Below are positions 34,160-43,606 of a stretch of 64,000 nt of DNA, in pieces (position 1 is the stretch's first letter; each line of letters begins with the position of its first letter). Source of the stretch: an uncultured Pseudomonadota bacterium (GTDB lineage: Bacteria > Oederibacteriota > Muellerivitia > Muellerivitales > Muellerivitaceae); NCBI GenBank assembly GCA_963836235.1, contig CAWIIP010000002.1:1440001-1504000 (forward strand), read 5' to 3'. The notes beneath the pieces were generated by a model, which was not told where the DNA came from, did not search any database, and saw nothing but the letters and a program-made list of their open reading frames with translations. A program made the position numbers and the translations under genes.

Positions 34160-34310
34160 CCCCCTTTTTTATCCCACTTAAATCAGGTTTTCTCCCCCTT
34201 CCCTAAAACCTGGGATTGGACTAAGCTTTTACTGTCTAAAAGTAGTCGAATATGCCGCTTCTCTTATTTTCATGGATGCTAATGAGGTTGATGTGGTTGA
34301 GAGGGACAAT

Positions 34311-35546
34311 ATGAATCGGAAATTTTTTTATGGGGCGGCCGCTTCTTGGTTGCTATTGGCCGGGATGGTATTAACGGGTTGTCCAAGTAAATTAACCATT
34401 CCTACCGCGCCTCCTCCTCCCCCGACAGCGACTTCCACCCTCGTCTCGACGAACAGCCCTTCCTTGACGCCCACAGGAACCCCGCCACCCGCCACCCACA
34501 CGCCTTCTTCGACCTGCAGTTTCACCCCGACGAATACCATTTCCCCCCCAACACCCACCTCGACCGCCACCAACACGGCCACGAATAGCCCGATCATCAC
34601 TTCGACGAATTCCCCGACCAACAGCGCCACTTCCACGAATACATTTACGGCCACCTTCACCCCGACGGCCACGCCCTCATTCACGATCACCAACACCCCA
34701 ACCGCCACCCCGACTCCCACCGGTCCTACCTCAACCCCGACCAGCACTTTCACTCCTCCCGCTTTCGACTTTTCTTCCGGCGTGACCAATTTGACGACGG
34801 GCCTTTATACTTTTAGCTGCGTCCATATTGGGGCCGGGGGTGTGGTGTCCATTTACGGCGCCGTCACCATTATGACGACCTGCTTTACCCTGGACGCCGG
34901 GGCGACTATTTCGGGAACGGGGAATGGGTACTTAGGAAATACCGGCGGGGGGCCGGGTGTCGGTTGGGGCGGCGCGGTGACTTGCGCCTGTGTTCCGCCT
35001 CTGTTGGGTTTTGGCGGGGGCGGGGGCCATGGTGGGGCGGGAGCGACTTTTTGCGATGGCGCTTCCTGCGCTCCCGGGGGAACCACCAACGACAATCCCG
35101 CGAATCCCACTTTAATGGGAAGCGCCGGGGGAAATGTCCAAGGTCTTTTAATCGGTTCCGGCTCAGGTGGAGCGCTGCTGAAAATCATTGTTTATGACCC
35201 TGTCGCAAACGCGGTGGCCCCGGCGACCGTGAATGGGACCATCGACATGACCGGGGGCGCGGGCGGGAGCGACTATACGGATGACGAATATAGCGGCGGG
35301 GGCGCGGGGGGAGCGGTCTACCTTGAGGCCAGCACCCTTTCCGGAACCGGGCTCGTGCAGGCCAACGGCGGGGCGGCGAATTATTCGGGCGGCGGCGGGG
35401 GGGGCCTAATCTCTTTCCTTGAAAATTTAACCTCCTTTCCGGGAACAACTTCCGTGGTGGGCGGCATTTCGGCCAGCAGTTCTTCCGACGACGGCGCTCC
35501 CGGAACGGTGACCTTCACCACGGCGCCGGTGAGCGGCTACCTTTAA
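34311..35546 (+). CDS. Lipoprotein with Thr/Pro stalk and Gly-rich C-terminal domain
   Basis: Lipobox LTGC; TPT repeats; GGGGGHGG.G and GGGAGG motifs. Confidence 0.8.
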   Translation: MNRKFFYGAAASWLLLAGMVLTGCPSKLTIPTAPPPPPTATSTLVSTNSPSLTPTGTPPPATHTPSSTCSFTPTNTISPPTPTSTATNTATNSPIITSTNSPTNSATSTNTFTATFTPTATPSFTITNTPTATPTPTGPTSTPTSTFTPPAFDFSSGVTNLTTGLYTFSCVHIGAGGVVSIYGAVTIMTTCFTLDAGATISGTGNGYLGNTGGGPGVGWGGAVTCACVPPLLGFGGGGGHGGAGATFCDGASCAPGGTTNDNPANPTLMGSAGGNVQGLLIGSGSGGALLKIIVYDPVANAVAPATVNGTIDMTGGAGGSDYTDDEYSGGGAGGAVYLEASTLSGTGLVQANGGAANYSGGGGGGLISFLENLTSFPGTTSVVGGISASSSSDDGAPGTVTFTTAPVSGYL

Positions 35547-35630: not shown

Positions 35631-35658
35631 ATATTGCGCCCAGGGCCCGTCACGGACA
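35631..35658 (+). repeat. Degenerate left boundary site (right arm conserved)
   Basis: ATATTGCGCCCAG-GG-CCCGTCACGGACA; right arm 11/13 identical to CCCGTCGTGGACA. Confidence 0.55.
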
Positions 35659-35692
35659 ATGTCCTGGTGAGAAACTTGAATAGGAGTCGCTG

Positions 35693-36121
35693 ATGAATTC
35701 ACAATGGGCTTTTGTTTTATTGACCACCCTCTCTTTTGGTTTTTTTAATATTTTCATCCGGGCGGCGGGGCCGAAGATCGGCGGTATTTTAGGGCCCTTG
35801 TTCGTGGAGGGGTTCGCGGCGGCGGTTCTCCTGCTGTTTTTCCTTTGGCGGAAATGGAACGGGTCGGTGGAGCCGGTGACTTCCCTGGGAGCGGCCTATT
35901 CCATGGCCGCCGGCTTTTGCGCCGCCGCCGGTTCGATCGGGTTCTTCGTCGTCTTTTCCAAGGGAGGGATGCTTTCAGCGGCCGGTTCCTTTGTCTTGAT
36001 CGGAAGCACGATGCTGACCATCTTGGGCGGCTTTGTCCTTTTTAAGGAACCGGTCAACGCCTACCGTGCCGTGGGAATCCTATTGGGGCTTGTCAGCCTT
36101 TACCTATTGCGCATGGATTAA
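35693..36121 (+). CDS. EamA/DMT-family small transporter (cassette 1)
   Basis: About five hydrophobic segments, C-terminal LFKEPV...GILLG. Confidence 0.8.
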   Translation: MNSQWAFVLLTTLSFGFFNIFIRAAGPKIGGILGPLFVEGFAAAVLLLFFLWRKWNGSVEPVTSLGAAYSMAAGFCAAAGSIGFFVVFSKGGMLSAAGSFVLIGSTMLTILGGFVLFKEPVNAYRAVGILLGLVSLYLLRMD

Positions 36122-36169
36122 AAAAGTCGGTGGATTCTTTGTTAGGACCAACGAAGCGTTCTGTAAAGT

Positions 36170-36197
36170 TGTCCACGACGGGGACCCTTCGTGGACA
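36170..36197 (+). repeat. 28-bp cassette site 1
   Basis: TGTCCACGACGGG-GA-CCCTTCGTGGACA. Confidence 0.9.
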
Positions 36198-36230
36198 GGT
36201 AAATTTAATGCGGGACTAAAGGAGAAACAA

Positions 36231-36536
36231 ATGCTGGAATTGAGGCCCACTTGCGAGAATTGCAATAAACCTTTGCCGCCTGAATCCCTAGAAGCGAGGA
36301 TTTGTACCTACGAGTGCACATTTTGCTCGGCTTGCGTGGAGCTTCTTGAAAATGTATGCCCCAGTTGCGGCGGTGGATTCTGTCCCAGGCCCATCCGGCC
36401 AAAAACCAATTGGAAGGGCGATAATTATCTGGGGAAAGACCCGGCGAGTACTAAGATCAAGCACCGCCCCGTTGATTTAAAAGAACATGCCCAGTTTTCT
36501 CTTCCGATTAAGAATCTGCCGCCTGAAAAAAGATAA
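36231..36536 (+). CDS. DUF1272 family Cys-rich protein (cassette 2)
   Basis: MLELRPTCENC...ARICTYECTFC..C...CPSCGG...RP.RP; RBS AAGGAG. Confidence 0.88.
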   Translation: MLELRPTCENCNKPLPPESLEARICTYECTFCSACVELLENVCPSCGGGFCPRPIRPKTNWKGDNYLGKDPASTKIKHRPVDLKEHAQFSLPIKNLPPEKR

Positions 36537-36543
36537 TGGGCGT

Positions 36544-36562
36544 TGTCCACGATGGGGACCCA
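36544..36562 (+). repeat. 28-bp cassette site 2, left part (interrupted by the intron; remainder at 38493-38501)
   Basis: TGTCCACGATGGG-GA-CCCA | intron | TCGTGGACA rejoins to a perfect 13-bp inverted repeat. Confidence 0.9.
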
Positions 36563-38492
36563 GCGCGCCAAGAAAGCTGTTGTTCATCCAGTCGGCTGAA
36601 ATGTGCCGACCCAGACAAAATTTGGCAGTCTGGTAGCAGGGAGCCGAATCGGGCAGGGTAACCTGCCAGGTTCAAGCGGCTCGACAAAGGGCGGCAAAGC
36701 GCCCGATGCGAAAGGACGGGTCGTAACACGTGTGAACCTAGGTGTAACCTCGTAACGTCGAGATTGAGGAGGGTGACCCTTTTGGGTCTTGGGGAAACCA
36801 GTATTCCATGCGGGAGCCAGAAATACGCATGGGACTGCTTCGGGGTAACAGGGGCGACACGTCCAGACGGAGAACAACGGAACTTGGGAGACCCATAGGG
36901 AAGCACAAGGTACCTGCCTATAAGTCTAAGCGGCGAAATGGCAGGGAGAGCCTATGGGAGTCAGACAAGCCTACAGTAGCTATGAGGGCTAGGACTAAAC
37001 CTAGTCAGAGCAAAGGGGCTTGACCTGGGTAGAGCTTGGCCAGGAGAGAGGGACAAGGGATTGGCGATGAGCCTAGTAACCCTACAAAAAGTTCAGGATC
37101 TTCAGCACAAGCTAGCTGGGAGGAGTAAGTCAAAGCCGAAAGAACGTTTCTACAGTCTCTACGACAAGGTGTGCCGGAAAGAGGTTCTGTGGGAAGCATG
37201 GCAGAAGGTGAAGGGCAATGGAGGTTCCGGAGGAGTGGACGGGGTAACGGTGGAAGGTATAAAGGCCACCGGAGAGAAGGAATACCTGCGGGCACTCTGG
37301 ACGGAGCTGAAGGAAAAGGAATATAAGCCATTGCCGCTCAGGCGGGTTTGGATACTAAAGGCCAACGGGAAGAAAAGGCCCTTGGGGATACCGACGGTGA
37401 AAGACCGGATTGTACAGCAAGCGGTACGATTCGTTATGGAGCCGATCTTCGAGGCGCACTTCTCGGAAGTGTCCTTTGGATTCAGGCCAGGCCGGGACTG
37501 CCATCAGGCCATCACCAGAGTGGTGACATACCTAAATTGGGGTATGGTGAACGTGGTTGAGACGGACATTGTGGACTGCTTCGGAAGTATCCCACATGGA
37601 AGGCTGTTGAAAGCGGTGGCTCGCAGGATAGCCGACAAAGGTATCCTGAGGGTGATCCGGCAATGGCTGAAATGCGGGGTGATGGAAGAAGGGCAGTTCC
37701 AAGAAACGACCACGGGAACGCCTCAAGGAGGGGTGATTTCGCCGCTTCTGGCGAATATTTACCTGGATGCGCTGGATCAACTTTGGAAGAAGCGGAAGAT
37801 GGATTCCAAAAGCGGATACAACGCCCAAATGGTCAGATACGCCGATGACATGGTAATTCTCACGGATCGGAGCCCCCGGGAGGCGGAAAGGCTGCTGAGG
37901 GAAACCTTGGGCAGACTGGATTTGAAGCCTCACCCGGAAAAGACGCGGGTGGTGAACGCAAAGGCAGGGGATTTTAACTTTCTGGGGTTCAATTTCCGAC
38001 AGCGGAAGAATCCCCGAACAGGGAGAAGCCAATGCCTGTTTCAACCCTCGCAGAAGGCCCAAAAGAATGTGCGGGAGAAAATCAGACTGGCTACAGCAAG
38101 CCCGGAGTTAAATGAACTGGGTAAGGTGGTCAGAGAGAAAGTTAATCCCATTCTGAGAGGGTGGGTGAATTACTTTCGGATCGGAAACTCCAGCAAAACT
38201 TTTAATAATCTCCGGAACTTTGCAAAGAAGAGAGTCCTGCGATTTATTCGCAGGAGGAAGAAACAAAGCGGGCCAGGTTGGGACAGGATCAGCGAGGATT
38301 TCCTTTATGGGAAGCTGGGCCTGTTTAAGGAATACCGGGTGAAACGGTTTTCTCAACCCGCTGTGGCTTAGACGAAGGGCCTCCGGTGAATACCCTTGGA
38401 AAGCCGTATGCGGGAAAACCGCACGTACGGTTTGATGAGGAGGCGTTGGAAACGTGCCGGTTATCCGGTGACGCGCCAGTGCTTTACTCTAT
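36563..38492 (+). mobile_element. Group II intron (IIB-like, full-length domain V)
   Basis: 5' GCGCG, domain V AGCCGTATGCGGGAAAACCGCACGTACGGTT at ~38402, domain VI ending ACTCTAT; removal restores the flanking repeat exactly. Confidence 0.92.
37067..38371 (+). CDS. ltrA: Group II intron reverse transcriptase/maturase without endonuclease domain
   Basis: RPLGIPTVKDRIVQ, GFRPGR, GTPQGGVISPLLANIYL, RYADD, FLGF, X domain NPILRGWVNYF. Confidence 0.95.
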   Translation: MSLVTLQKVQDLQHKLAGRSKSKPKERFYSLYDKVCRKEVLWEAWQKVKGNGGSGGVDGVTVEGIKATGEKEYLRALWTELKEKEYKPLPLRRVWILKANGKKRPLGIPTVKDRIVQQAVRFVMEPIFEAHFSEVSFGFRPGRDCHQAITRVVTYLNWGMVNVVETDIVDCFGSIPHGRLLKAVARRIADKGILRVIRQWLKCGVMEEGQFQETTTGTPQGGVISPLLANIYLDALDQLWKKRKMDSKSGYNAQMVRYADDMVILTDRSPREAERLLRETLGRLDLKPHPEKTRVVNAKAGDFNFLGFNFRQRKNPRTGRSQCLFQPSQKAQKNVREKIRLATASPELNELGKVVREKVNPILRGWVNYFRIGNSSKTFNNLRNFAKKRVLRFIRRRKKQSGPGWDRISEDFLYGKLGLFKEYRVKRFSQPAVA

Positions 38493-38501
38493 TCGTGGAC
38501 A
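38493..38501 (+). repeat. 28-bp cassette site 2, right part (3' exon)
   Basis: TCGTGGACA directly after the intron 3' end. Confidence 0.85.
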
Positions 38502-38524
38502 CTTAATTGACGGAAAGGGCATTT

Positions 38525-39148
38525 ATGCATGACCGGGAACTAAGAATAAAAATGGTAAGTTTTGTCAAAGAATCGCCAAGCGCGACCCTTTTGCTTTGTT
38601 TTATGGCCGGCATTGTCATCACGCGAACGCTTACTACTTTTGGTTTTGGCTTTAATTATTTCTTTGCGTTTTTATTGCTTTCCGGCTCATTCTTGATTTT
38701 TAGGGTATTGAATTTAAACAGAACGGCTGTCCTTTTAAGCCCCGATTCCATCCAATTTTTCGAATCGATTCCCGTGCAAAGTTTTATCCTGGCTACGAAA
38801 AAAGTGAATGCTAAATGGGAGGATGTGACAAAAGTTCAAACCTATGAAACGTTGATGCAAAAATGGGAATATCGGCAACCTAAAAGTCCCGCTTTTGGGG
38901 GGGCGGTATGGGGTTCGGAGATTCAGTTGAATGATTTGTTTATATTAAAAACTAAACTTTACGTGAGGATTGCGGACAGTTTGAAAGAAAAAAGTTTTAC
39001 GATTTCTATGACTAATGAAAAATATCCCGAATACCTGATTTATTTAAAAAACAAACTGGATCCTTCGAAAATGGATTCGAAAACGATTGAGCTGCAAAAT
39101 CCAAAAATATTGATGGACGAGATGATGAAACGAAAAGTTTTTATTTAA
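38525..39148 (+). CDS. AT-rich hypothetical two-TM protein (cassette 3)
   Basis: Two hydrophobic segments then a soluble domain; stop 7 nt before site 3. Confidence 0.7.
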   Translation: MHDRELRIKMVSFVKESPSATLLLCFMAGIVITRTLTTFGFGFNYFFAFLLLSGSFLIFRVLNLNRTAVLLSPDSIQFFESIPVQSFILATKKVNAKWEDVTKVQTYETLMQKWEYRQPKSPAFGGAVWGSEIQLNDLFILKTKLYVRIADSLKEKSFTISMTNEKYPEYLIYLKNKLDPSKMDSKTIELQNPKILMDEMMKRKVFI

Positions 39149-39155
39149 GCAATAT

Positions 39156-39183
39156 TGTCCACGGCGGGGACCCATCGTGGACA
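39156..39183 (+). repeat. 28-bp cassette site 3
   Basis: TGTCCACGGCGGG-GA-CCCATCGTGGACA. Confidence 0.9.
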
Positions 39184-39234
39184 CCTAAGAAAGCAATAAT
39201 CAGTACTTGCCACGGAGAAACTTTGGGCATAAAA

Positions 39235-39252
39235 TGTACATCATCATGTACA
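39235..39252. promoter_or_regulatory. Phd/YefM-type TA operator
   Basis: Two TGTACA palindromes 12 bp apart just upstream of the antitoxin RBS. Confidence 0.7.
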
Positions 39253-39265
39253 TAAGGAGTTGCTC

Positions 39266-39547
39266 GTGACACCAACTAGCTTTACCATTGCACAGGCCCG
39301 AATCCATTTTCCCGGGCTCATCCACGATGCGGAAAAAGGGAAGCCGGTGGAGATAACCCGGCGAGGGAAACCGGTTGCCGTCTTGGTATCGGTGGATGCC
39401 TACCGGCATTTGACCGCACCCCGTCCCGGGTTTTGGGAGGTTGTTTCGGCCTTCCACGGCCGTATCAAAGCGAGTAAGGCCGGTTTGGAACCTAAAGATC
39501 TCCGGGGAATCCGCGAAACCGGACCCGGAAGAGAATTTAAGTGGTGA
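39266..39547 (+). CDS. Phd/YefM-family antitoxin (cassette 4)
   Basis: IAQARIHFPGLI..AEKGKPVEITRRGKPVAVLVS; GTG after AAGGAG. Confidence 0.9.
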   Translation: MTPTSFTIAQARIHFPGLIHDAEKGKPVEITRRGKPVAVLVSVDAYRHLTAPRPGFWEVVSAFHGRIKASKAGLEPKDLRGIRETGPGREFKW

Positions 39548-39975
39548 AGCCCCGGTACTTGTTAGACACCAATGTCGTTTCGGAAGCAGCCCGTGTAAAA
39601 CCAAATCCCAATGTGATGAGAAAACTTGAGCGGCACAAAGACGAAATGGGAATCGCAAGTATTGTTTGGCATGAACTCGTCTTCGGCTGCGACCGCTTGC
39701 CACCCTCCGAAAAACGGACCCTTTTAGAGGAATTCCTTTCGGAATTAGCAAACTCCTCCATGTTAATTTTTCCTTATGACACGGAAGCGGCTGCTTGGCA
39801 CGGCCGGGAGCGTGCCCGTTTATCCAGACTGGGACTTACACCGGCATTCGCGGATGGGCAGATTGCTTCCATCGCGAAAGTCCATGATTTGATCCTGGTC
39901 ACCAACAACATCCGGAATTACCGTCATTTCGATCAACTGAAGATGGAGAATTGGCACGGCATGGCTAAAAATTGA
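39544..39975 (+). CDS. vapC: VapC PIN-domain toxin (cassette 4)
   Basis: YLLDTNVVSE, EL.FG, DGQIASIA, LVTNN..Y.HF. Confidence 0.92.
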   Translation: MKPRYLLDTNVVSEAARVKPNPNVMRKLERHKDEMGIASIVWHELVFGCDRLPPSEKRTLLEEFLSELANSSMLIFPYDTEAAAWHGRERARLSRLGLTPAFADGQIASIAKVHDLILVTNNIRNYRHFDQLKMENWHGMAKN

Positions 39976-39983
39976 AAAATGCT

Positions 39984-40011
39984 TGTCCACGATGGGGACC
40001 CGTCGTGGACA
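39984..40011 (+). repeat. 28-bp cassette site 4
   Basis: TGTCCACGATGGG-GA-CCCGTCGTGGACA. Confidence 0.9.
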
Positions 40012-40076
40012 ATCATTTCTGCCACAAAAGGGTTAATATAAAGACGCCGTAAGTTGTTGCGTTGGAGAGGTGAATT

Positions 40077-40571
40077 ATAAAAAAAATATTATCAGGAATT
40101 TTAATATTTTTTGTTGGAGCTTTTGCATTCTACTTCCCTAGCTTTGTGGGTCACGCTTTTTCCGGGAATGGGGAATTTTCGAAACCAGAATTTTTTTTAA
40201 TATTCATTTGTCCTTTTATAACTTCACTTTTAATGCTTCTTTGGTTTAGAAAAAAATTCGTTTTAATTCCCAAAGGGTTAATTTCCTTAATTTTTATTTT
40301 GGGGATATGGATTTTGGGAACATTTGCAACTATGGCGAGCGCTAGCTTAGCAGGCGCAGGGTTTACAAAAATAGCTTCATTTTCTGATTGGAAAGATTTG
40401 ATCGTTCTAACTCTATGTTTTCCTCTTTCGACATTTGAGTGCACTACTTATGATGGAACATTAGGGGCATTGTTTGCTTTTTCTCTGTTTGTTCTTATCT
40501 GGATATTGATTGATGTTATTGTTTTAGTCAAAAAGGGCGGCAAAAAGAAGTTAGCCATTGATCGAACATAA
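40077..40571 (+). CDS. AT-rich multi-TM hypothetical protein (cassette 5); apparent ATA start
   Basis: Frame is open from ATA 40077 after GAGGTG, giving (M)KKILSGILIFFVGAFAFYFPSFVGHAF...; ORF track starts at GTG 40146. Confidence 0.6.
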   Translation: MKKILSGILIFFVGAFAFYFPSFVGHAFSGNGEFSKPEFFLIFICPFITSLLMLLWFRKKFVLIPKGLISLIFILGIWILGTFATMASASLAGAGFTKIASFSDWKDLIVLTLCFPLSTFECTTYDGTLGALFAFSLFVLIWILIDVIVLVKKGGKKKLAIDRT

Positions 40572-40656
40572 ATTTCTTCATGCGCTCCTTTATGGTCGAA
40601 TTACCTGGGATTTGTTGGTTCGTAAATCGGAATGGGGTCTTTGGTCATTTAGAGCT

Positions 40657-40684
40657 TGTCCACGACGGGGACCCACATTGGACA
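40657..40684 (+). repeat. 28-bp cassette site 5
   Basis: TGTCCACGACGGG-GA-CCCACATTGGACA. Confidence 0.85.
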
Positions 40685-40698
40685 AGGAAAATGTTTTA

Positions 40699-40725
40699 AT
40701 ATGTACGGAATAATACCGTACATAT
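40699..40725. promoter_or_regulatory. Operator of the DUF1778-GNAT TA operon
   Basis: Perfect 10-bp IR ATATGTACGG-N7-CCGTACATAT upstream of the antitoxin. Confidence 0.7.
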
Positions 40726-40752
40726 GGTATATTTAAAACAGAGGTAATGGCC

Positions 40753-41034
40753 ATGACGAAAGCCCTAAAAACCAAGGAAGAACGCATTGAACTAAGGGTA
40801 AGACCCCAGGATAAGCGATTGCTGGAAAAGGCGGCTCAGGCCCAGGGTTTGAGCCTGAGTTCCTATCTCGTGACGCGGTCCCTCCATGCGGCCCAGGAAG
40901 ACGCGATCCCGGTTAAAACCTATGTTCCGCCTAAACGGGACGTGGACTTATTCCTGAGGCTTCTAGAAAACCCTCCCGCGCCTAACGAAAAGCTTAAGGC
41001 GGCGGCACGGCGCTACCAAAAAGAAATATCCTGA
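40753..41034 (+). CDS. DUF1778 RHH antitoxin (TacA/AtaR-like; cassette 6)
   Basis: KEERIELRV...K.LLEKAA..QGLSLSSY, F..LLENPPAPNEKL. Confidence 0.9.
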   Translation: MTKALKTKEERIELRVRPQDKRLLEKAAQAQGLSLSSYLVTRSLHAAQEDAIPVKTYVPPKRDVDLFLRLLENPPAPNEKLKAAARRYQKEIS

Positions 41035-41043
41035 TTTTCCGTT

Positions 41044-41562
41044 ATGACAGGCCCAAAATGGAAGTTTGTGCCCATCACAGAAAAACCGGACCTCGAATGT
41101 TTTGATTCCGGCATTCCTGAACTCAATGATTATCTGAAAAAATACGCGGGCCAGAACCACCGCAAGGGGTTAGGAAGCACTTATGTCCTCGTTCCGGCCG
41201 AAGGAGAACCGGTTGCGGCTGGTTATCACACCTTGAGCATGGCTCAGGTGGAATTGCATTCGCTGCCGGAATCCCAACGCAAAAACCTCCCGAAGTATCC
41301 GGTCCCCGCGGTCCGATTGGGACGCCTTGCCGTTGACCGCCAATGGCAAGGAACTGGATTGGGGGAGATATTACTGATCGATGCCATCCGCCGGTCTGTT
41401 GCCGCCGTCCAATCGGTGGCCGCGAAGTATATGATCGTCGATGCCAAAAACAAAAAGGCTGAGGAGTTTTACCACCGATACGGGTTTCAACCCTTTGAAG
41501 GCGGTTCGCACTCATTAGTGGCAGCCATTGATACCTTAAAAGTACTTTTTACGAAAGGTTGA
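41044..41562 (+). CDS. GNAT acetyltransferase toxin (TacT/AtaT-like; cassette 6)
   Basis: FDSG..ELNDYL, PVPAVRLGRLAVD..WQGTGLG..LL.DA, VDAKN..A..FY..YGF. Confidence 0.9.
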   Translation: MTGPKWKFVPITEKPDLECFDSGIPELNDYLKKYAGQNHRKGLGSTYVLVPAEGEPVAAGYHTLSMAQVELHSLPESQRKNLPKYPVPAVRLGRLAVDRQWQGTGLGEILLIDAIRRSVAAVQSVAAKYMIVDAKNKKAEEFYHRYGFQPFEGGSHSLVAAIDTLKVLFTKG

Positions 41563-41569
41563 AAAATCC

Positions 41570-41597
41570 TGTCTAAGACGGGAACCGCATTGAATGG
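41570..41597 (+). repeat. Degenerate right boundary site (left arm conserved)
   Basis: TGTCTAAGACGGG-AA-CCGCATTGAATGG; left arm 11/13 identical; 7 nt after the GNAT stop. Confidence 0.6.
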
Positions 41598-42099: not shown

Positions 42100-42277
42100 G
42101 AGCTTGGCTGGTGGGGTCTATCCATGCCCCTTTCATCCCTTTAAAACAGGCCTTTTTCACTTCTTTAAAATAATTTGGATTTAACCGGCCTTTTCCCGTC
42201 TAAAGGTTGGCGGTTATGACGCTAGTCCTATTTCCATTATCCCCTGGGAGGAGATGATGGTTCTTACGGGGGAAAAT

Positions 42278-43606
42278 ATGGAACGGAAATTCTTTCTCGG
42301 GGTAGTGGTCTCTTGGATGTTGTCGGCCGGACTGGTTTTAACAGGTTGCCCCAGCCACCTCGGGGTTCCTTCCGCGCCCCCGCCTCCCTTGACGGCGACT
42401 TCCACCTTCGCTTCGACCAATAGCCCTTCTTTAACGCCCACGGCAACCGCCCCGGCGCTCACTCTGACGGGGACTCCCACCCAAACCGTAACAAGTACCG
42501 CCACCAACAGTCCGACATTTACCCCCTTGTCTTCCACCGCGACCTTCACCTTTACGCCCAGCTTTACGCTGAGCCCCATCCCAACACTCACCGTCACGAA
42601 TACGCCGACTAGCGGGGCGAACACTTTCACCCCGACTCTCACCTGGAGTCCGACCGGCATCGTCCCCCTCACCTTTACCCTTACCACCACCGCCTGCCCG
42701 ACCCACACCGCCACCTTATCTGTCACACCTACCCCCTCCAATACGGCCACGGTGACTCCTATCGGTTCTTGGTATACCTCCACCCCAACGGGTACTCCCA
42801 CCATCACCGGAACTCCCACTCTCACCGGCACGCCCACCCACACCGGAACCCCGACTAGCACCCTGCCGCCACCGCCCACTTTTACCGGCACGCCGACCCA
42901 GACTCCCAACGCCACGGCGACTTCCTGCCCTCCCGGTTTCGTGATGGGGAACAACAGCGTGGGGCTTTATGAGGATACGGACACCCAAAGGCTGAAACTC
43001 AACCGTTACACCGCGCCTTATAACACGACCCTCTATAGCATCACCGGCGCTTATTACAACGGAGGATTCACGCCGGATTTCACCTTCGCCGTTTACGACG
43101 ATAACGGAAGCGGAACCGCGCCGACCACCTTGTTGAGCCAGGCGGTTTATCCCTCCACCAGCGGCAGTTATGCCTACAGCTATCCTTGGGCCACCTTCAA
43201 CCTGGCGACTCCGGTCACCGTCACGACTAGGAAATATTATTGGCTTGGGTACAGCCTCAACGCGGGTTATTTCTTTTACAGTCCGACCACGTCGGTGACT
43301 TACGCTTATCAATATCCGGCCCCGCCGCAATCCTTGCCCTCCAGTTTTTCGGGAACCGTCAATCCCGTCGGAACTAACTACGTCCTGTCCCTTTACGTCA
43401 ACGGCTGTCCCTTCACCCCCCTGCCCAATACCCCGACTTACACGGCGACGATGACGCCCACTTCCAGCTTCACTTTCACGGTCACGCCGACGCCCACCGA
43501 CAGCCTCACGCCGACTCCCACGCCGATAGGAAGCTGGTTCACCGCCACCCCGACCATGACTCCCACGCCGACAATCACCTTCACTCCCACCGCCACGCCG
43601 ACCTGA
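42278..43606 (+). CDS. Lipoprotein with Thr/Pro stalks and an aromatic-rich central domain
   Basis: Lipobox LTGC; N-terminus paralogous to the 34311 gene. Confidence 0.8.
   Translation: MERKFFLGVVVSWMLSAGLVLTGCPSHLGVPSAPPPPLTATSTFASTNSPSLTPTATAPALTLTGTPTQTVTSTATNSPTFTPLSSTATFTFTPSFTLSPIPTLTVTNTPTSGANTFTPTLTWSPTGIVPLTFTLTTTACPTHTATLSVTPTPSNTATVTPIGSWYTSTPTGTPTITGTPTLTGTPTHTGTPTSTLPPPPTFTGTPTQTPNATATSCPPGFVMGNNSVGLYEDTDTQRLKLNRYTAPYNTTLYSITGAYYNGGFTPDFTFAVYDDNGSGTAPTTLLSQAVYPSTSGSYAYSYPWATFNLATPVTVTTRKYYWLGYSLNAGYFFYSPTTSVTYAYQYPAPPQSLPSSFSGTVNPVGTNYVLSLYVNGCPFTPLPNTPTYTATMTPTSSFTFTVTPTPTDSLTPTPTPIGSWFTATPTMTPTPTITFTPTATPT

Follow-up and report, generated by a model that had tools for sequence, protein, structure and literature searches.

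The window, by which we mean the whole 64,000-nucleotide stretch of DNA analysed here, carries on its forward strand a row of small genes separated by copies of a 28-bp palindromic site. Five copies in the same orientation, as the original prediction had stated, were recovered: four by a pattern search for which 100 shuffles gave an expectation of zero hits in the window, and the fifth, split by an intron, by reading the sequence. The array begins with a degenerate right half-site (35646-35658, two mismatches to the 13-nt right half) whose left half is unrecognisable; we estimate that chance alone gives a few equally good 13-mers per window, and this one is plausible because it lies 35 nt upstream of the first cassette gene. 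That gene (35693-36121) encodes a small membrane protein with a weak EamA match (Pfam, 20.7 bits, cut-off 28.2), and is followed by site 1 (36170-36197, no mismatches) and by a gene for a DUF1272 protein (36231-36536, Pfam E = 1e-24). The left 18-19 nt of site 2 (36544-36562) are separated from its right 9 nt (38493-38501) by a group II intron lacking an endonuclease domain (36563-38492, from Rfam and Pfam matches, boundary ±1 nt). The third cassette gene is an AT-rich ORF without a Pfam family (38507-39148; unit G+C 0.37), and site 3 (39156-39183, zero or one mismatch) leads into a fourth cassette (39260-39975) with Pfam matches to a Phd/YefM antitoxin (39260-39547) and a PIN/VapC toxin (39541-39975). 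Beyond site 4 (39984-40011, no mismatches) lies an AT-rich ORF for a membrane-like protein, also without a Pfam family (40146-40571; unit G+C 0.35), and beyond site 5 (40657-40684, three mismatches), which combines a consensus left half with a variant right arm, a sixth cassette (40747-41562) encodes a TacA-like antitoxin (40747-41034) and a GNAT acetyltransferase (41044-41562), both identified with Pfam. A degenerate terminal site, recognised by reading the sequence (41570-41597), lies 8 nt past the GNAT stop codon.

The sites do part unrelated co-oriented genes, since the Pfam families (weak EamA, DUF1272, PhdYeFM with PIN, TacA with GNAT, and two proteins without a family) differ from unit to unit. 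Site-to-site distances of 374, 681 (intron excluded), 828, 673 and 914 bp agree with the predicted range of about 370-910 bp, as does the expected shift in base composition, G+C running from 0.35 to 0.54 between units. The stop codon lies 7-8 nt ahead of the site in the four cases claimed, namely DUF1272, the first AT-rich membrane protein, VapC and, at the degenerate site, GNAT; in the two remaining cassettes the gap is 48 and 85 nt. Profile searches with PF00589, PF00239 and PF01797 returned no match inside the window, placing any recombinase outside it, as had been supposed.

The intron matches RF02005 (36600-36855) and RF00029 (38399-38492), and its reverse transcriptase/maturase ORF (37061-38371) carries RVT_1 and GIIM domains. 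It is inserted after position 19 of the site, with an uncertainty of 1 nt, and a second copy, 99.85% identical, occupies the same position in another site (G000 C1:223030-224988), while a second intron lineage, found in relatives, starts immediately 3' of the palindrome. Group IIC-attC introns, too, are group II introns without an endonuclease that home to recombination sites in cassette arrays; these are described as inserting in the bottom strand, opposite the cassette genes (PMC3001079), whereas the intron in the window lies in sense orientation inside the palindrome.

The predicted 28-mer recurs well beyond the window. This genome holds about 77 sites, 70 of them in 13 arrays and seven as singletons, and 69 of the 70 array sites follow the direction of their array; at loci in other genomes 221 of 225 adjacent site pairs share one orientation (median spacing 838 bp). 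Array ORFs of at least 60 aa in this genome are mostly co-oriented (70, with 18 opposite, the latter including two IS transposases and shadow frames). With the 18-nt left part as query (at most one mismatch; 0-1 hits with the reversed pattern as control), the site was found in 22/24 other family genomes and in the single sister-family genome, and in 1/15 genomes elsewhere in the phylum. Genomes of this uncultured family bear candidate division FCPU426 labels. Across at least 16 genera the sequence and polarity of the site are strictly conserved. The cassette cargo is unrelated: besides toxin-antitoxin pairs it includes HAD hydrolases, a LOG-family protein, a GNAT, an outer-membrane barrel and unknowns.

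Several comparisons bear out the claim of gene capture, the sites delimiting discrete, variable and exchangeable cassettes. A 1.27-kb unit is present twice at 100% identity (C2:1195350-1196625 and C4:57528-58803), the identity stopping at the sites, and two arrays share a BrnT/RHH pair (91% identity). For four cassettes, counterparts of 96-100% identity exist in other genomes, the alignments stopping no more than 11 nt from the site border on either side. At the orthologous locus of the congeneric G001 the flanking genes are present and the array and its sites are absent. Moreover, one clean empty/occupied pair was found: at locus L203 of a relative an intact variant palindrome directly follows a serine recombinase gene, and at its counterpart in this genome, which has homologous flanks, the left and right halves of this palindrome lie 3311 bp apart (C2:168009 and C2:164698), the filling being two cassettes and one consensus site. 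The window holds one array out of at least 13 in this genome, each a row of small mobile cassettes in an integron-like gene-capture system built without integron parts.

To locate the exchange point we compared the flanks of 422 sites, among which 35 pairs have the upstream flank alone in common and 171 the downstream flank alone. Variants at position 11 track the upstream flank and those at positions 16-28 the downstream flank, which would place the exchange at the site centre, bracketed by positions 11-16; there are exceptions among flank-sharing pairs, such as L074:4536 versus L103:1642, which show two left-arm differences. Terminal sites have a good left half (mean 0.92 mismatches) and a poor right half (mean 2.67). 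Conservation is 93-100% in the outer arms, 89-99% in the centre and 60-84% in the inner arms.

It is very improbable that the palindromes are ordinary REP-like elements, RNA 3'-end stabilisers or terminators with no role in mobility. Each site can fold into a hairpin of 12-13 bp (-10 to -13 kcal/mol with DNA parameters), most lie within 60 nt of a co-oriented stop codon (49/60 here, 245/301 elsewhere), hairpin-homing intron lineages use them, and the genome encodes three Y1-transposase genes, all of which would suit such a role. However, no site lies within 9 kb of these transposase genes, no T-run follows the hairpin, the inner arms lack compensatory pairing, orientation is maintained despite a symmetric stem, and 70 of the 77 sites fall within accessory-gene arrays, where they form the limits of cassette homology; hybrid end sites and the empty/occupied pair also argue against it. 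REP/RAYT systems are similar in having short, GC-rich, lineage-specific palindromes behind genes in tens of copies per genome, but here no Y1-transposase gene adjoins the sites, which are clustered, co-oriented and located at homology breaks, with no inverted pairs. A hairpin-only role is largely refuted by the identical units ending at sites, the flank linkage, the empty/occupied pair and the cross-genome matches.

We consider it highly probable instead that any two sites can recombine, conservatively and site-specifically, with exchange in the centre, and that cassettes are excised and inserted in this way. A cassette would be one or two co-oriented genes with a right half-site at its start and a left half-site at its end, and strand exchange would take place within the invariant centre GGGGACCC, with its asymmetric GA; because the exchange would fall at this asymmetric GA, insertion would always yield direct repeats. 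Arrays would build up at the 3' end of a resident gene pointing the same way.

The expected association with a recombinase was found outside the window, both in this genome and in relatives: at 13 of 14 loci a serine recombinase gene or its remnant physically adjoins the array, ending 18-48 bp from a site and converging on the array. The candidate (C2:163827-164663 in this genome; 275-281 aa across copies) is a relative of the large serine recombinases that keeps the catalytic Resolvase and the DNA-binding Recombinase domains and has lost the zinc-ribbon/coiled-coil part, and five intact short copies share one end point, ahead of the zinc ribbon. Its dN/dS of 0.08-0.16 indicates, from sequence comparison, that the short form is under purifying selection. 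All four metagenome relatives with at least 81% identity are short, and three of these have an adjacent site with at most six mismatches to the consensus; at L203, one of the three, this is the intact variant palindrome, at L205 the site lies 111 nt past the recombinase stop in opposite orientation, and the fourth relative (L204) has its contig end within a partial variant palindrome. Among relatives with at most 68% identity, 58/65 complete ORFs are at least 470 aa long, and none of the 76 has the site. In large serine integrases the missing part is described as reading the outer half-site and enforcing attP x attB pairing (PMC3783163). A protein without it would suit a site of two 13-bp halves flanking a 2-bp crossover, and would be able to pair identical sites.

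This short serine recombinase is the most likely enzyme to run the cassettes, at about even odds. In that case the variant site adjoining its gene would act as an attI-like entry site, and arrays such as that in the window may be served in trans, as are integrase-less integron cassette clusters. Intact copies occur in 5/31 family genomes and any match in 13/31, and no match was found in the site-rich G005, G010, G021 and G023, with only a fragment in G018, which has the most sites. This is not what is predicted for a required enzyme; such absence is weak evidence, because fragmented metagenome bins break at arrays. Of the 13 arrays here, 12 lack a neighbouring recombinase gene. A rather unlikely alternative is that real cassettes are moved by another recombinase, or that the 28-bp repeats exchange with the help of RecA or through hairpins; the short serine recombinase would then be an island integrase that attaches at the palindrome much as two intron lineages target it. 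ArdC- and RadC-like island genes adjoin the recombinase in three relatives (G042, G045 and G001), so that it may be an island integrase and the site merely its target; in addition, the recombinase-bearing stretch of G045 is flanked by two co-oriented sites, copies are often truncated, and many site-rich genomes lack an intact one. We also counted for it that 28 bp of identity is close to the lower limit for homologous exchange. Against it, the strict conservation of the site across those genera points to a reading protein, the short form is kept at one length under selection, and cassette insertions fall precisely within the site adjoining the recombinase gene; homologous exchange predicts crossovers throughout the repeat, whereas the left arm was linked to the upstream flank and the right half to the downstream flank.

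The original prediction also allowed an 11-6-11 tyrosine-recombinase reading, which is weakened and stays a rival. The same cassettes would then be run by the one Xer-like tyrosine recombinase that the host encodes (353 aa, C1:328834-329895) at a dif-like site, comparably to Xer-exploiting elements or Acinetobacter dif modules. The 28-bp length and the exchange bracket, which would equally suit cleavage by a tyrosine enzyme at 11|12, are compatible with this, as is a left arm better conserved than the right, described likewise for XerD versus XerC arms (PMC6449649). The protein matches the XerC, XerD and XerA models, all below cut-off, and motif scans of this genome found no canonical dif-like site. 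In 23/24 other genomes of the family, and also in the sister family, there is one ortholog per genome at 56-79% identity, and other families of the phylum give hits of at most 35% identity, often two per genome, so this order-specific recombinase matches the spread of the site; that phyletic match, however, amounts to a single evolutionary transition. The near-invariant centre and most variable inner arms are the reverse of the dif/pdif profile, where the centre is described as variable and the inner arms as conserved (PMC6449649), and the recombinase gene is nowhere near a site in this genome. Moreover, G003 (99% complete) has one three-site array only, which does not coincide with a GC-skew switch, and G017 (97% complete) encodes the recombinase with no site within three mismatches; therefore the Xer-like recombinase seems to own another, housekeeping site. 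Altogether we regard this reading as unlikely. Acinetobacter dif modules do resemble the present system in having 28-bp sites around small toxin-antitoxin or adaptive modules and varied contexts, and both would rely on a host enzyme acting in trans, but in the same description they are mainly plasmid-borne with inversely oriented sites (PMC6449649), in contrast to the chromosomal direct repeats found here.

Among serine recombinase systems, the best named matches of the candidate are CcrB and CcrA of the staphylococcal cassette chromosome (SCC), which have the Resolvase and Recombinase domains in common with it; its score of 75 bits is nevertheless far below the CcrB cut-off of 900, and it has neither zinc ribbon nor coiled coil. 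Like the cassettes here, SCC elements can be lined up in tandem at a single site, with ccr-less ones mobilised in trans; the units here are single genes, and their arrays occupy many loci. The site may resemble Tn3/gamma-delta res site I, as the original prediction proposed: res site I, hix and gix have two inverted half-sites of about 12-13 bp, with polarity set by the asymmetry of the central dinucleotide. Small serine recombinases resolve cointegrates or invert segments, are not known to build cassette arrays, and carry a small C-terminal helix-turn-helix, unlike the 'recombinase' domain of the candidate. Large serine integrases are described as using attP/attB pairs of 40-50 bp (PMC3783163, PMC12286644), compared with the alike 28-bp sites here.

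In layout the system resembles integrons and their integrase-less cassette clusters (CALIN), which are likewise described as having co-oriented, mostly single-gene, unrelated and toxin-antitoxin-rich cassettes, a palindromic site for every cassette, sites that become chimeric on insertion, a dedicated entry site adjacent to the recombinase and many recombinase-less arrays (PMC4889954). As originally proposed, this is nonetheless not an integron: IntI was found in 0/31 family genomes, and the site, unlike attC, is a near-perfect palindrome without R/L boxes or extrahelical bases. Exchange is placed centrally rather than near one end of the site, genes point to the candidate recombinase gene whereas integron cassettes point away, 13 arrays are seeded behind ordinary genes in one genome, and the candidate is a serine recombinase, the integron enzyme being a tyrosine recombinase. 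The system may be the first serine-recombinase analogue of the integron.

The 28-bp palindrome TGTCCACGRYGGGGACCCNTCGTGGACA, in which two 13-bp arms surround a central asymmetric GA, lies on the + strand of the window at 36170, 39156, 39984 and 40657, where none is expected (100 shuffles), and a fifth copy at 36544 is interrupted after position 19 by a group II intron of 1.93 kb. At 35646-35658 there is a 13-mer resembling the right half, and a degenerate site at 41570-41597 closes the array. According to Pfam the sites separate a weak EamA-like membrane protein, a DUF1272 protein, two AT-rich proteins of no family, a Phd/PIN pair and a TacA/GNAT pair, with the G+C content of the units ranging from 0.35 to 0.54. 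The original prediction, which described co-oriented copies, one of them intron-split, separating unrelated genes, was accurate in this respect, and also in placing the recombinase elsewhere, no recombinase family match being found within the 64 kb. The window array is a genuine integron-like cassette array built on a simple 28-bp site. On either side of it, at 34272-35546 and 42254-43606, are two large paralogous Pro/Thr-rich proteins with lipoprotein-like N-termini, and a similar protein is present at the orthologous locus of the congeneric genome.

The genome that holds the window (G000; 3.97 Mb in five contigs, C1 to C5) carries 70 sites in 13 arrays of 2-14 sites, together with 7 singletons, and 69 of the 70 array sites point the same way as the rest of their array. 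Within these arrays the ORFs of 60 aa or longer mostly follow the sites (70 co-oriented, 18 not, the latter including two IS transposases and shadow frames), and an array typically has its first site just downstream of a co-oriented resident gene. The largest array carries genes unrelated to one another, namely two HAD hydrolases, a LOG-family protein, BrnT/RHH, GNAT, an outer-membrane barrel and unknowns. Site or array orientation tracks the sign of the local GC skew in 15 of 20 loci (12 of the 13 arrays), and therefore the top strand of the site tends to be the leading strand, a link that may merely reflect gene orientation. Within one array, 49 bp off a normal site, we also observed a perfect 28-bp palindrome of related but different sequence (C1:436587-436614), with a symmetric centre and other outer letters.

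Sites bounding variable genes, which the original prediction had proposed to look for in this genome and its relatives, were found in these 13 arrays and, using the 18-nt left part of the site with at most one mismatch, in 22 of the 24 other genomes of the family Muellerivitaceae (2-99 hits each). The same left part was present in the one sister-family genome and in one of 15 genomes from the phylum's other families (a single one-mismatch hit), against 0-1 hits for the pattern reversed as a control. When one genome from each of 185,579 species was scanned for exact matches, 92 stretches were returned, and their record titles refer to candidate division FCPU426 or to unnamed metagenome bins and in one case to Firestonebacteria; as regards phage carriage, a viral contig collection held no exact 18-mer match. 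Among loci fetched from other genomes, 221 of 225 neighbouring site pairs were co-oriented, with a median spacing of 838 bp.

Several observations indicate that the units move. In G000 two arrays on different contigs share a 1,276-bp unit with 100% identity, which ends at the outer edges of the flanking sites, and the BrnT/RHH pair is present in two arrays with 91% identity. Moreover, four cassettes are 96-100% identical to cassettes in loci of other genomes (L032, L081, L054 and L121), with both alignment ends no more than 11 nt from a site border and the neighbouring cassettes unmatched. Content and order fixed across relatives, the pattern that by the original prediction would refute it, were not seen: the only congeneric genome (G001) has the genes that flank the window array, separated by 3.2 kb with no site. 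[quoted passage not shown] For circles or deletions, 12 sequencing runs were available, all stored as contigs, in which rare circles are invisible, and four of them (X1-X4) were compared. One contig of run X1, joining 36187 to 39156, was discounted as evidence, its shorter side being just 21 letters and in an odd register, and loose ends at 36168 and 36543 were accounted for by other site or intron copies; runs with a small share are uninformative on habitat. Two kinds of IS were noted in G000, one of about 1.7 kb in six copies (C1:372050-373762 and five other places; five are 99.1-99.8% identical, one of them a 665-bp partial, and the sixth 87.9%) and one of about 1.5 kb in two (C2:1203197-1204690 and C5:2863-4355), and copies of both sit within cassette arrays.

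The point of exchange was analysed with 422 distinct sites and their 100-bp flanks. Only the upstream flank was shared by 35 pairs and only the downstream flank by 171, the latter being non-independent because one intron family contributes many of them. Odd letters at site position 11 accompany the upstream flank and odd letters at positions 16-28 the downstream flank, as illustrated by a right half starting GGC instead of CCC on a 100%-identical upstream flank that elsewhere bears the normal right half. This linkage, to which there are exceptions (L074:4536 and L103:1642 differ at two left-arm positions), places the exchange between positions 11 and 16 of 28, in the invariant centre, and bears the hallmark of conservative site-specific recombination acting on a simple site. 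Terminal sites have a good left half and a poor right one (0.92 versus 2.67 mismatches; 0.22 versus 1.17 in internal sites), which would follow if arrays had started with insertions into chromosomal look-alikes that match the site poorly.

Other elements also use the site. The window intron, which matches Rfam RF02005 and RF00029 and encodes a reverse transcriptase with RVT_1 and GIIM but no endonuclease domain, recurs with 99.85% identity at the same position in another G000 site, and run X4 contains a 96.6%-identical relative after the left half-site with a different 3' flank. In other genomes an ORF-less lineage of about 0.8 kb (RF02003 and RF00029) begins directly past the palindrome; it was seen at L107:2586-3385, L076, L063, L054 and some ten more loci, with many copies per genome and sometimes two within 1.7 kb. 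Three G000 sites, at C2:427130 (-), C2:1231169 (+) and C2:1943049 (+), have inserts of 22-46 nt at the position of the window intron, beginning ATTCGAC and ending CAGGC; these inserts may represent either a footprint or a miniature element. A parallel is described for attC and dif sites, which likewise serve as targets of introns and insertion sequences (PMC3001079, PMC10132070); compared with the attC-targeting introns in the former (PMC3001079), that of the window differs in sitting in the sense strand.

Among known systems, the window array was rejected as a member of the integrons, the dif modules, the large serine integrase elements and the REP elements. It resembles integrons in its co-oriented cassettes, with one site each, that vary between relatives. 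However, attC sites are longer than 28 bp; they are described as imperfect palindromes that have R and L boxes as well as extrahelical bases and that recombine in the form of folded single strands, the crossover lying near one end (PMC4889954), unlike the near-perfect site studied here with its central exchange. The integron integrase IntI (TIGR02249, cut-off 265 bits) was found in none of the 31 family genomes including G000, where the best score was 84.5 bits, and the initial view that these are neither attC sites nor an integron therefore holds. REP/RAYT systems consist of dispersed repeats, often in inverted pairs, that flank a Y1 (HUH) transposase gene, whereas 70 of the 77 G000 sites are in co-oriented arrays; the three Y1 transposase genes (PF01797) lie at least 9 kb from any site and were discarded as the enzyme. 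No description of the 28-bp site or of such a system was found in the literature covered (subscription journals and supplements lie outside this scope), nor did three 15-letter pieces of the site, searched as text, match any paper.

The recombinase inventory of G000 comprises eight tyrosine recombinases (six paralogous integrases, a 425-aa integrase and an Xer-like protein), two serine recombinases and the three Y1 transposases, of which only one touches an array. This is a 278-aa serine recombinase (C2:163827-164663) that converges on a three-site array, with its stop codon 35 bp from the last site. The six paralogous tyrosine integrases (366-386 aa; C2:508543, C2:1185612, C2:1373842, C4:195984, C4:244739 and C5:272301), one of which adjoins a 515-aa large serine integrase, probably mark integrated elements; they and the 515-aa protein were dismissed as the cassette enzyme since none adjoins an array, the nearest being 5.4 kb from C2:1192093-1205568. 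Separately, trios of adjacent tyrosine recombinases of about 330 aa, unrelated to the arrays, occur in several relatives (G018:C97:110447-112259, G043:C134, G015:C1, G023:C34, G012:C8 and others).

The Xer-like protein (353 aa; C1:328834-329895) would run the cassettes if the site were read as 11-6-11. The bacterial family and its sister family have one such divergent recombinase, as single-copy orthologues with 56-79% identity, while in the phylum's other families the hits are at most 35% identical and often two per genome; the gene therefore co-occurs with the site at the order level, and since the 28-bp length, common to Xer/dif modules, also fits, this reading stays alive. The protein scores 169 bits against the XerC model (cut-off 335), and it and its relatives measure about 350 aa, where other families often have two Xer homologues of ordinary length. 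The site, however, has a different profile. In dif and pdif sites the inner arms are conserved while the centre and the outer arms vary, and dif modules are bounded by inversely oriented sites (PMC6449649); here conservation is 89-99% at the centre (97-99% for the GA), 60-84% in the inner arms and 93-100% in the outer arms, and the sites are direct repeats both in G000 and in the neighbouring pairs elsewhere. In addition, one genome that is 99% complete (G003) has a single three-site array off any GC-skew switch, and another, 97% complete (G017), has the Xer-like recombinase with no site at up to 3 mismatches. Both genomes argue that this recombinase uses another site, and control of the cassettes by the Xer-like protein seems to us improbable. 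The position of the sole array in G003 also led us to reject the 28-bp site as the chromosomal dif. Motif scans of G000 for a canonical dif gave nothing convincing, and a palindrome at C1:305857, in the likely terminus zone, was set aside because it is not conserved (matched in 2 of 31 genomes including G000), so dimer resolution in this lineage may use another, undescribed site.

The short serine recombinase has only Resolvase (PF00239, E 4e-22) and Recombinase (PF07508) domains, the catalytic domain thus being of the kind found in serine recombinase systems, with its conserved serine motif: the block R18, S20 and S21 is invariant in all five intact copies, the nucleophile serine being presumed from known alignments. 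The zinc ribbon and coiled coil of large serine integrases, looked for after the recombinase domain, are absent, and all five copies terminate at one common point, which corresponds to the start of the cysteine-rich zinc-ribbon part in the 515-aa paralogue. Intact copies of 275-281 aa are present in 5 of the 31 family genomes (13 of 31 for any match including remnants), and their dN/dS is 0.08-0.16 with synonymous sites near saturation. As to clustering of the sites next to a serine or tyrosine recombinase, which the original prediction had proposed to test, 13 of the 14 loci with the gene or a remnant have a site 18-48 bp past its 3' end, always in one relative orientation, and the half-site adjoining the gene is usually a lineage-specific variant. 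The four metagenome relatives with at least 81% identity are all short, and three have an adjoining site with no more than 6 mismatches to the consensus; specifically, the site is an intact variant palindrome in L203 and lies 111 nt past the stop in the opposite orientation in L205, while the L204 contig ends 22 nt past the stop, within a partial variant palindrome. None of the other 76 relatives (at most 68% identity) has such a site, and 58 of their 65 complete ORFs have at least 470 aa. Since short ORFs and sites occur in close relatives only, and dN/dS indicates purifying selection, the short form derives from an ordinary large serine integrase and is both specific to the lineage and under selection.

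In large serine integrases the inner half-site is read by the recombinase domain and the outer part of the 25-bp half-site by the zinc ribbon, whose coiled coil limits pairing to attP with attB (PMC3783163). A protein devoid of that module should need about 13 bp per half-site and accept identical partners, and a 13-2-13 site with an asymmetric GA would match such a protein. Serine recombinases make a double-strand cut at a central dinucleotide, a part that the GA may play in this site. Against the short serine recombinase, several genomes rich in sites yielded no copy (these are fragmented bins, in which contigs break at arrays), its gene adjoins ArdC-/RadC-like island genes in three relatives, and in G045 the gene-bearing stretch is bounded by two co-oriented sites; it may therefore be an island integrase targeting the palindrome, or an autonomous cassette. 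We give the short serine recombinase about even odds of being the cassette enzyme, and consider something other than it or the Xer-like protein unlikely.

The comparison of G000 with L203 shows the site beside the recombinase gene in two states. The two loci have in common the recombinase gene (85% nucleotide identity; 89% for the protein), a helix-turn-helix gene and the immediate left flank. In L203 the intact variant palindrome, both arms of which differ from the consensus, lies directly past the stop codon and is followed by the helix-turn-helix gene. In G000 (C2:164698-168036) the left half of this palindrome is at C2:168009 and its right half at C2:164698, each joined at the centre to a consensus half, and between them are 3,311 bp comprising two cassettes and one consensus site. 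The cassettes therefore entered the centre of the site beside the recombinase gene, an entry point like that of attI beside intI in integrons, an analogue seen once only. The loci are otherwise not identical: in G000 an additional 264-aa ORF separates the left hybrid site from the helix-turn-helix gene. For the second recombinase lineage, no symmetric empty site was found in the available sequence, and in G042, G045, G022 and G018 the recombinase-linked arrays showed no matching variant left half at their far ends.

We propose a scenario in which a large serine integrase would have lost its zinc-ribbon and coiled-coil module, and with it the discrimination between attP and attB. The shortened integrase would then have been domesticated as a cassette recombinase, with an attI-like site at the 3' end of its gene, and would shuffle single-gene cassettes on identical 13-2-13 sites, in about a dozen chromosomal arrays per genome and between genera of this uncultured family. 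Tentatively, this could be the first serine-recombinase analogue of the integron, a shortened and domesticated integrase that shuffles cassettes within the genome and between genera.

Apart from integrons, which rely on one special tyrosine recombinase and folded attC sites, to our knowledge no well-understood system exists in which single promoter-poor genes are stockpiled and shuffled as cassettes. If our proposal is true, there would be a second, mechanistically unrelated solution, based on a 28-bp double-strand site, central exchange and probably a minimal serine recombinase, and gene capture in cassette arrays would have evolved more than once. The recombinase and site would form a very compact pair (about 280 aa and 28 bp, with no attP/attB asymmetry), a natural case of a large serine integrase stripped of its directionality module, and the system would account for a large part of the accessory genome in a widespread soil lineage.
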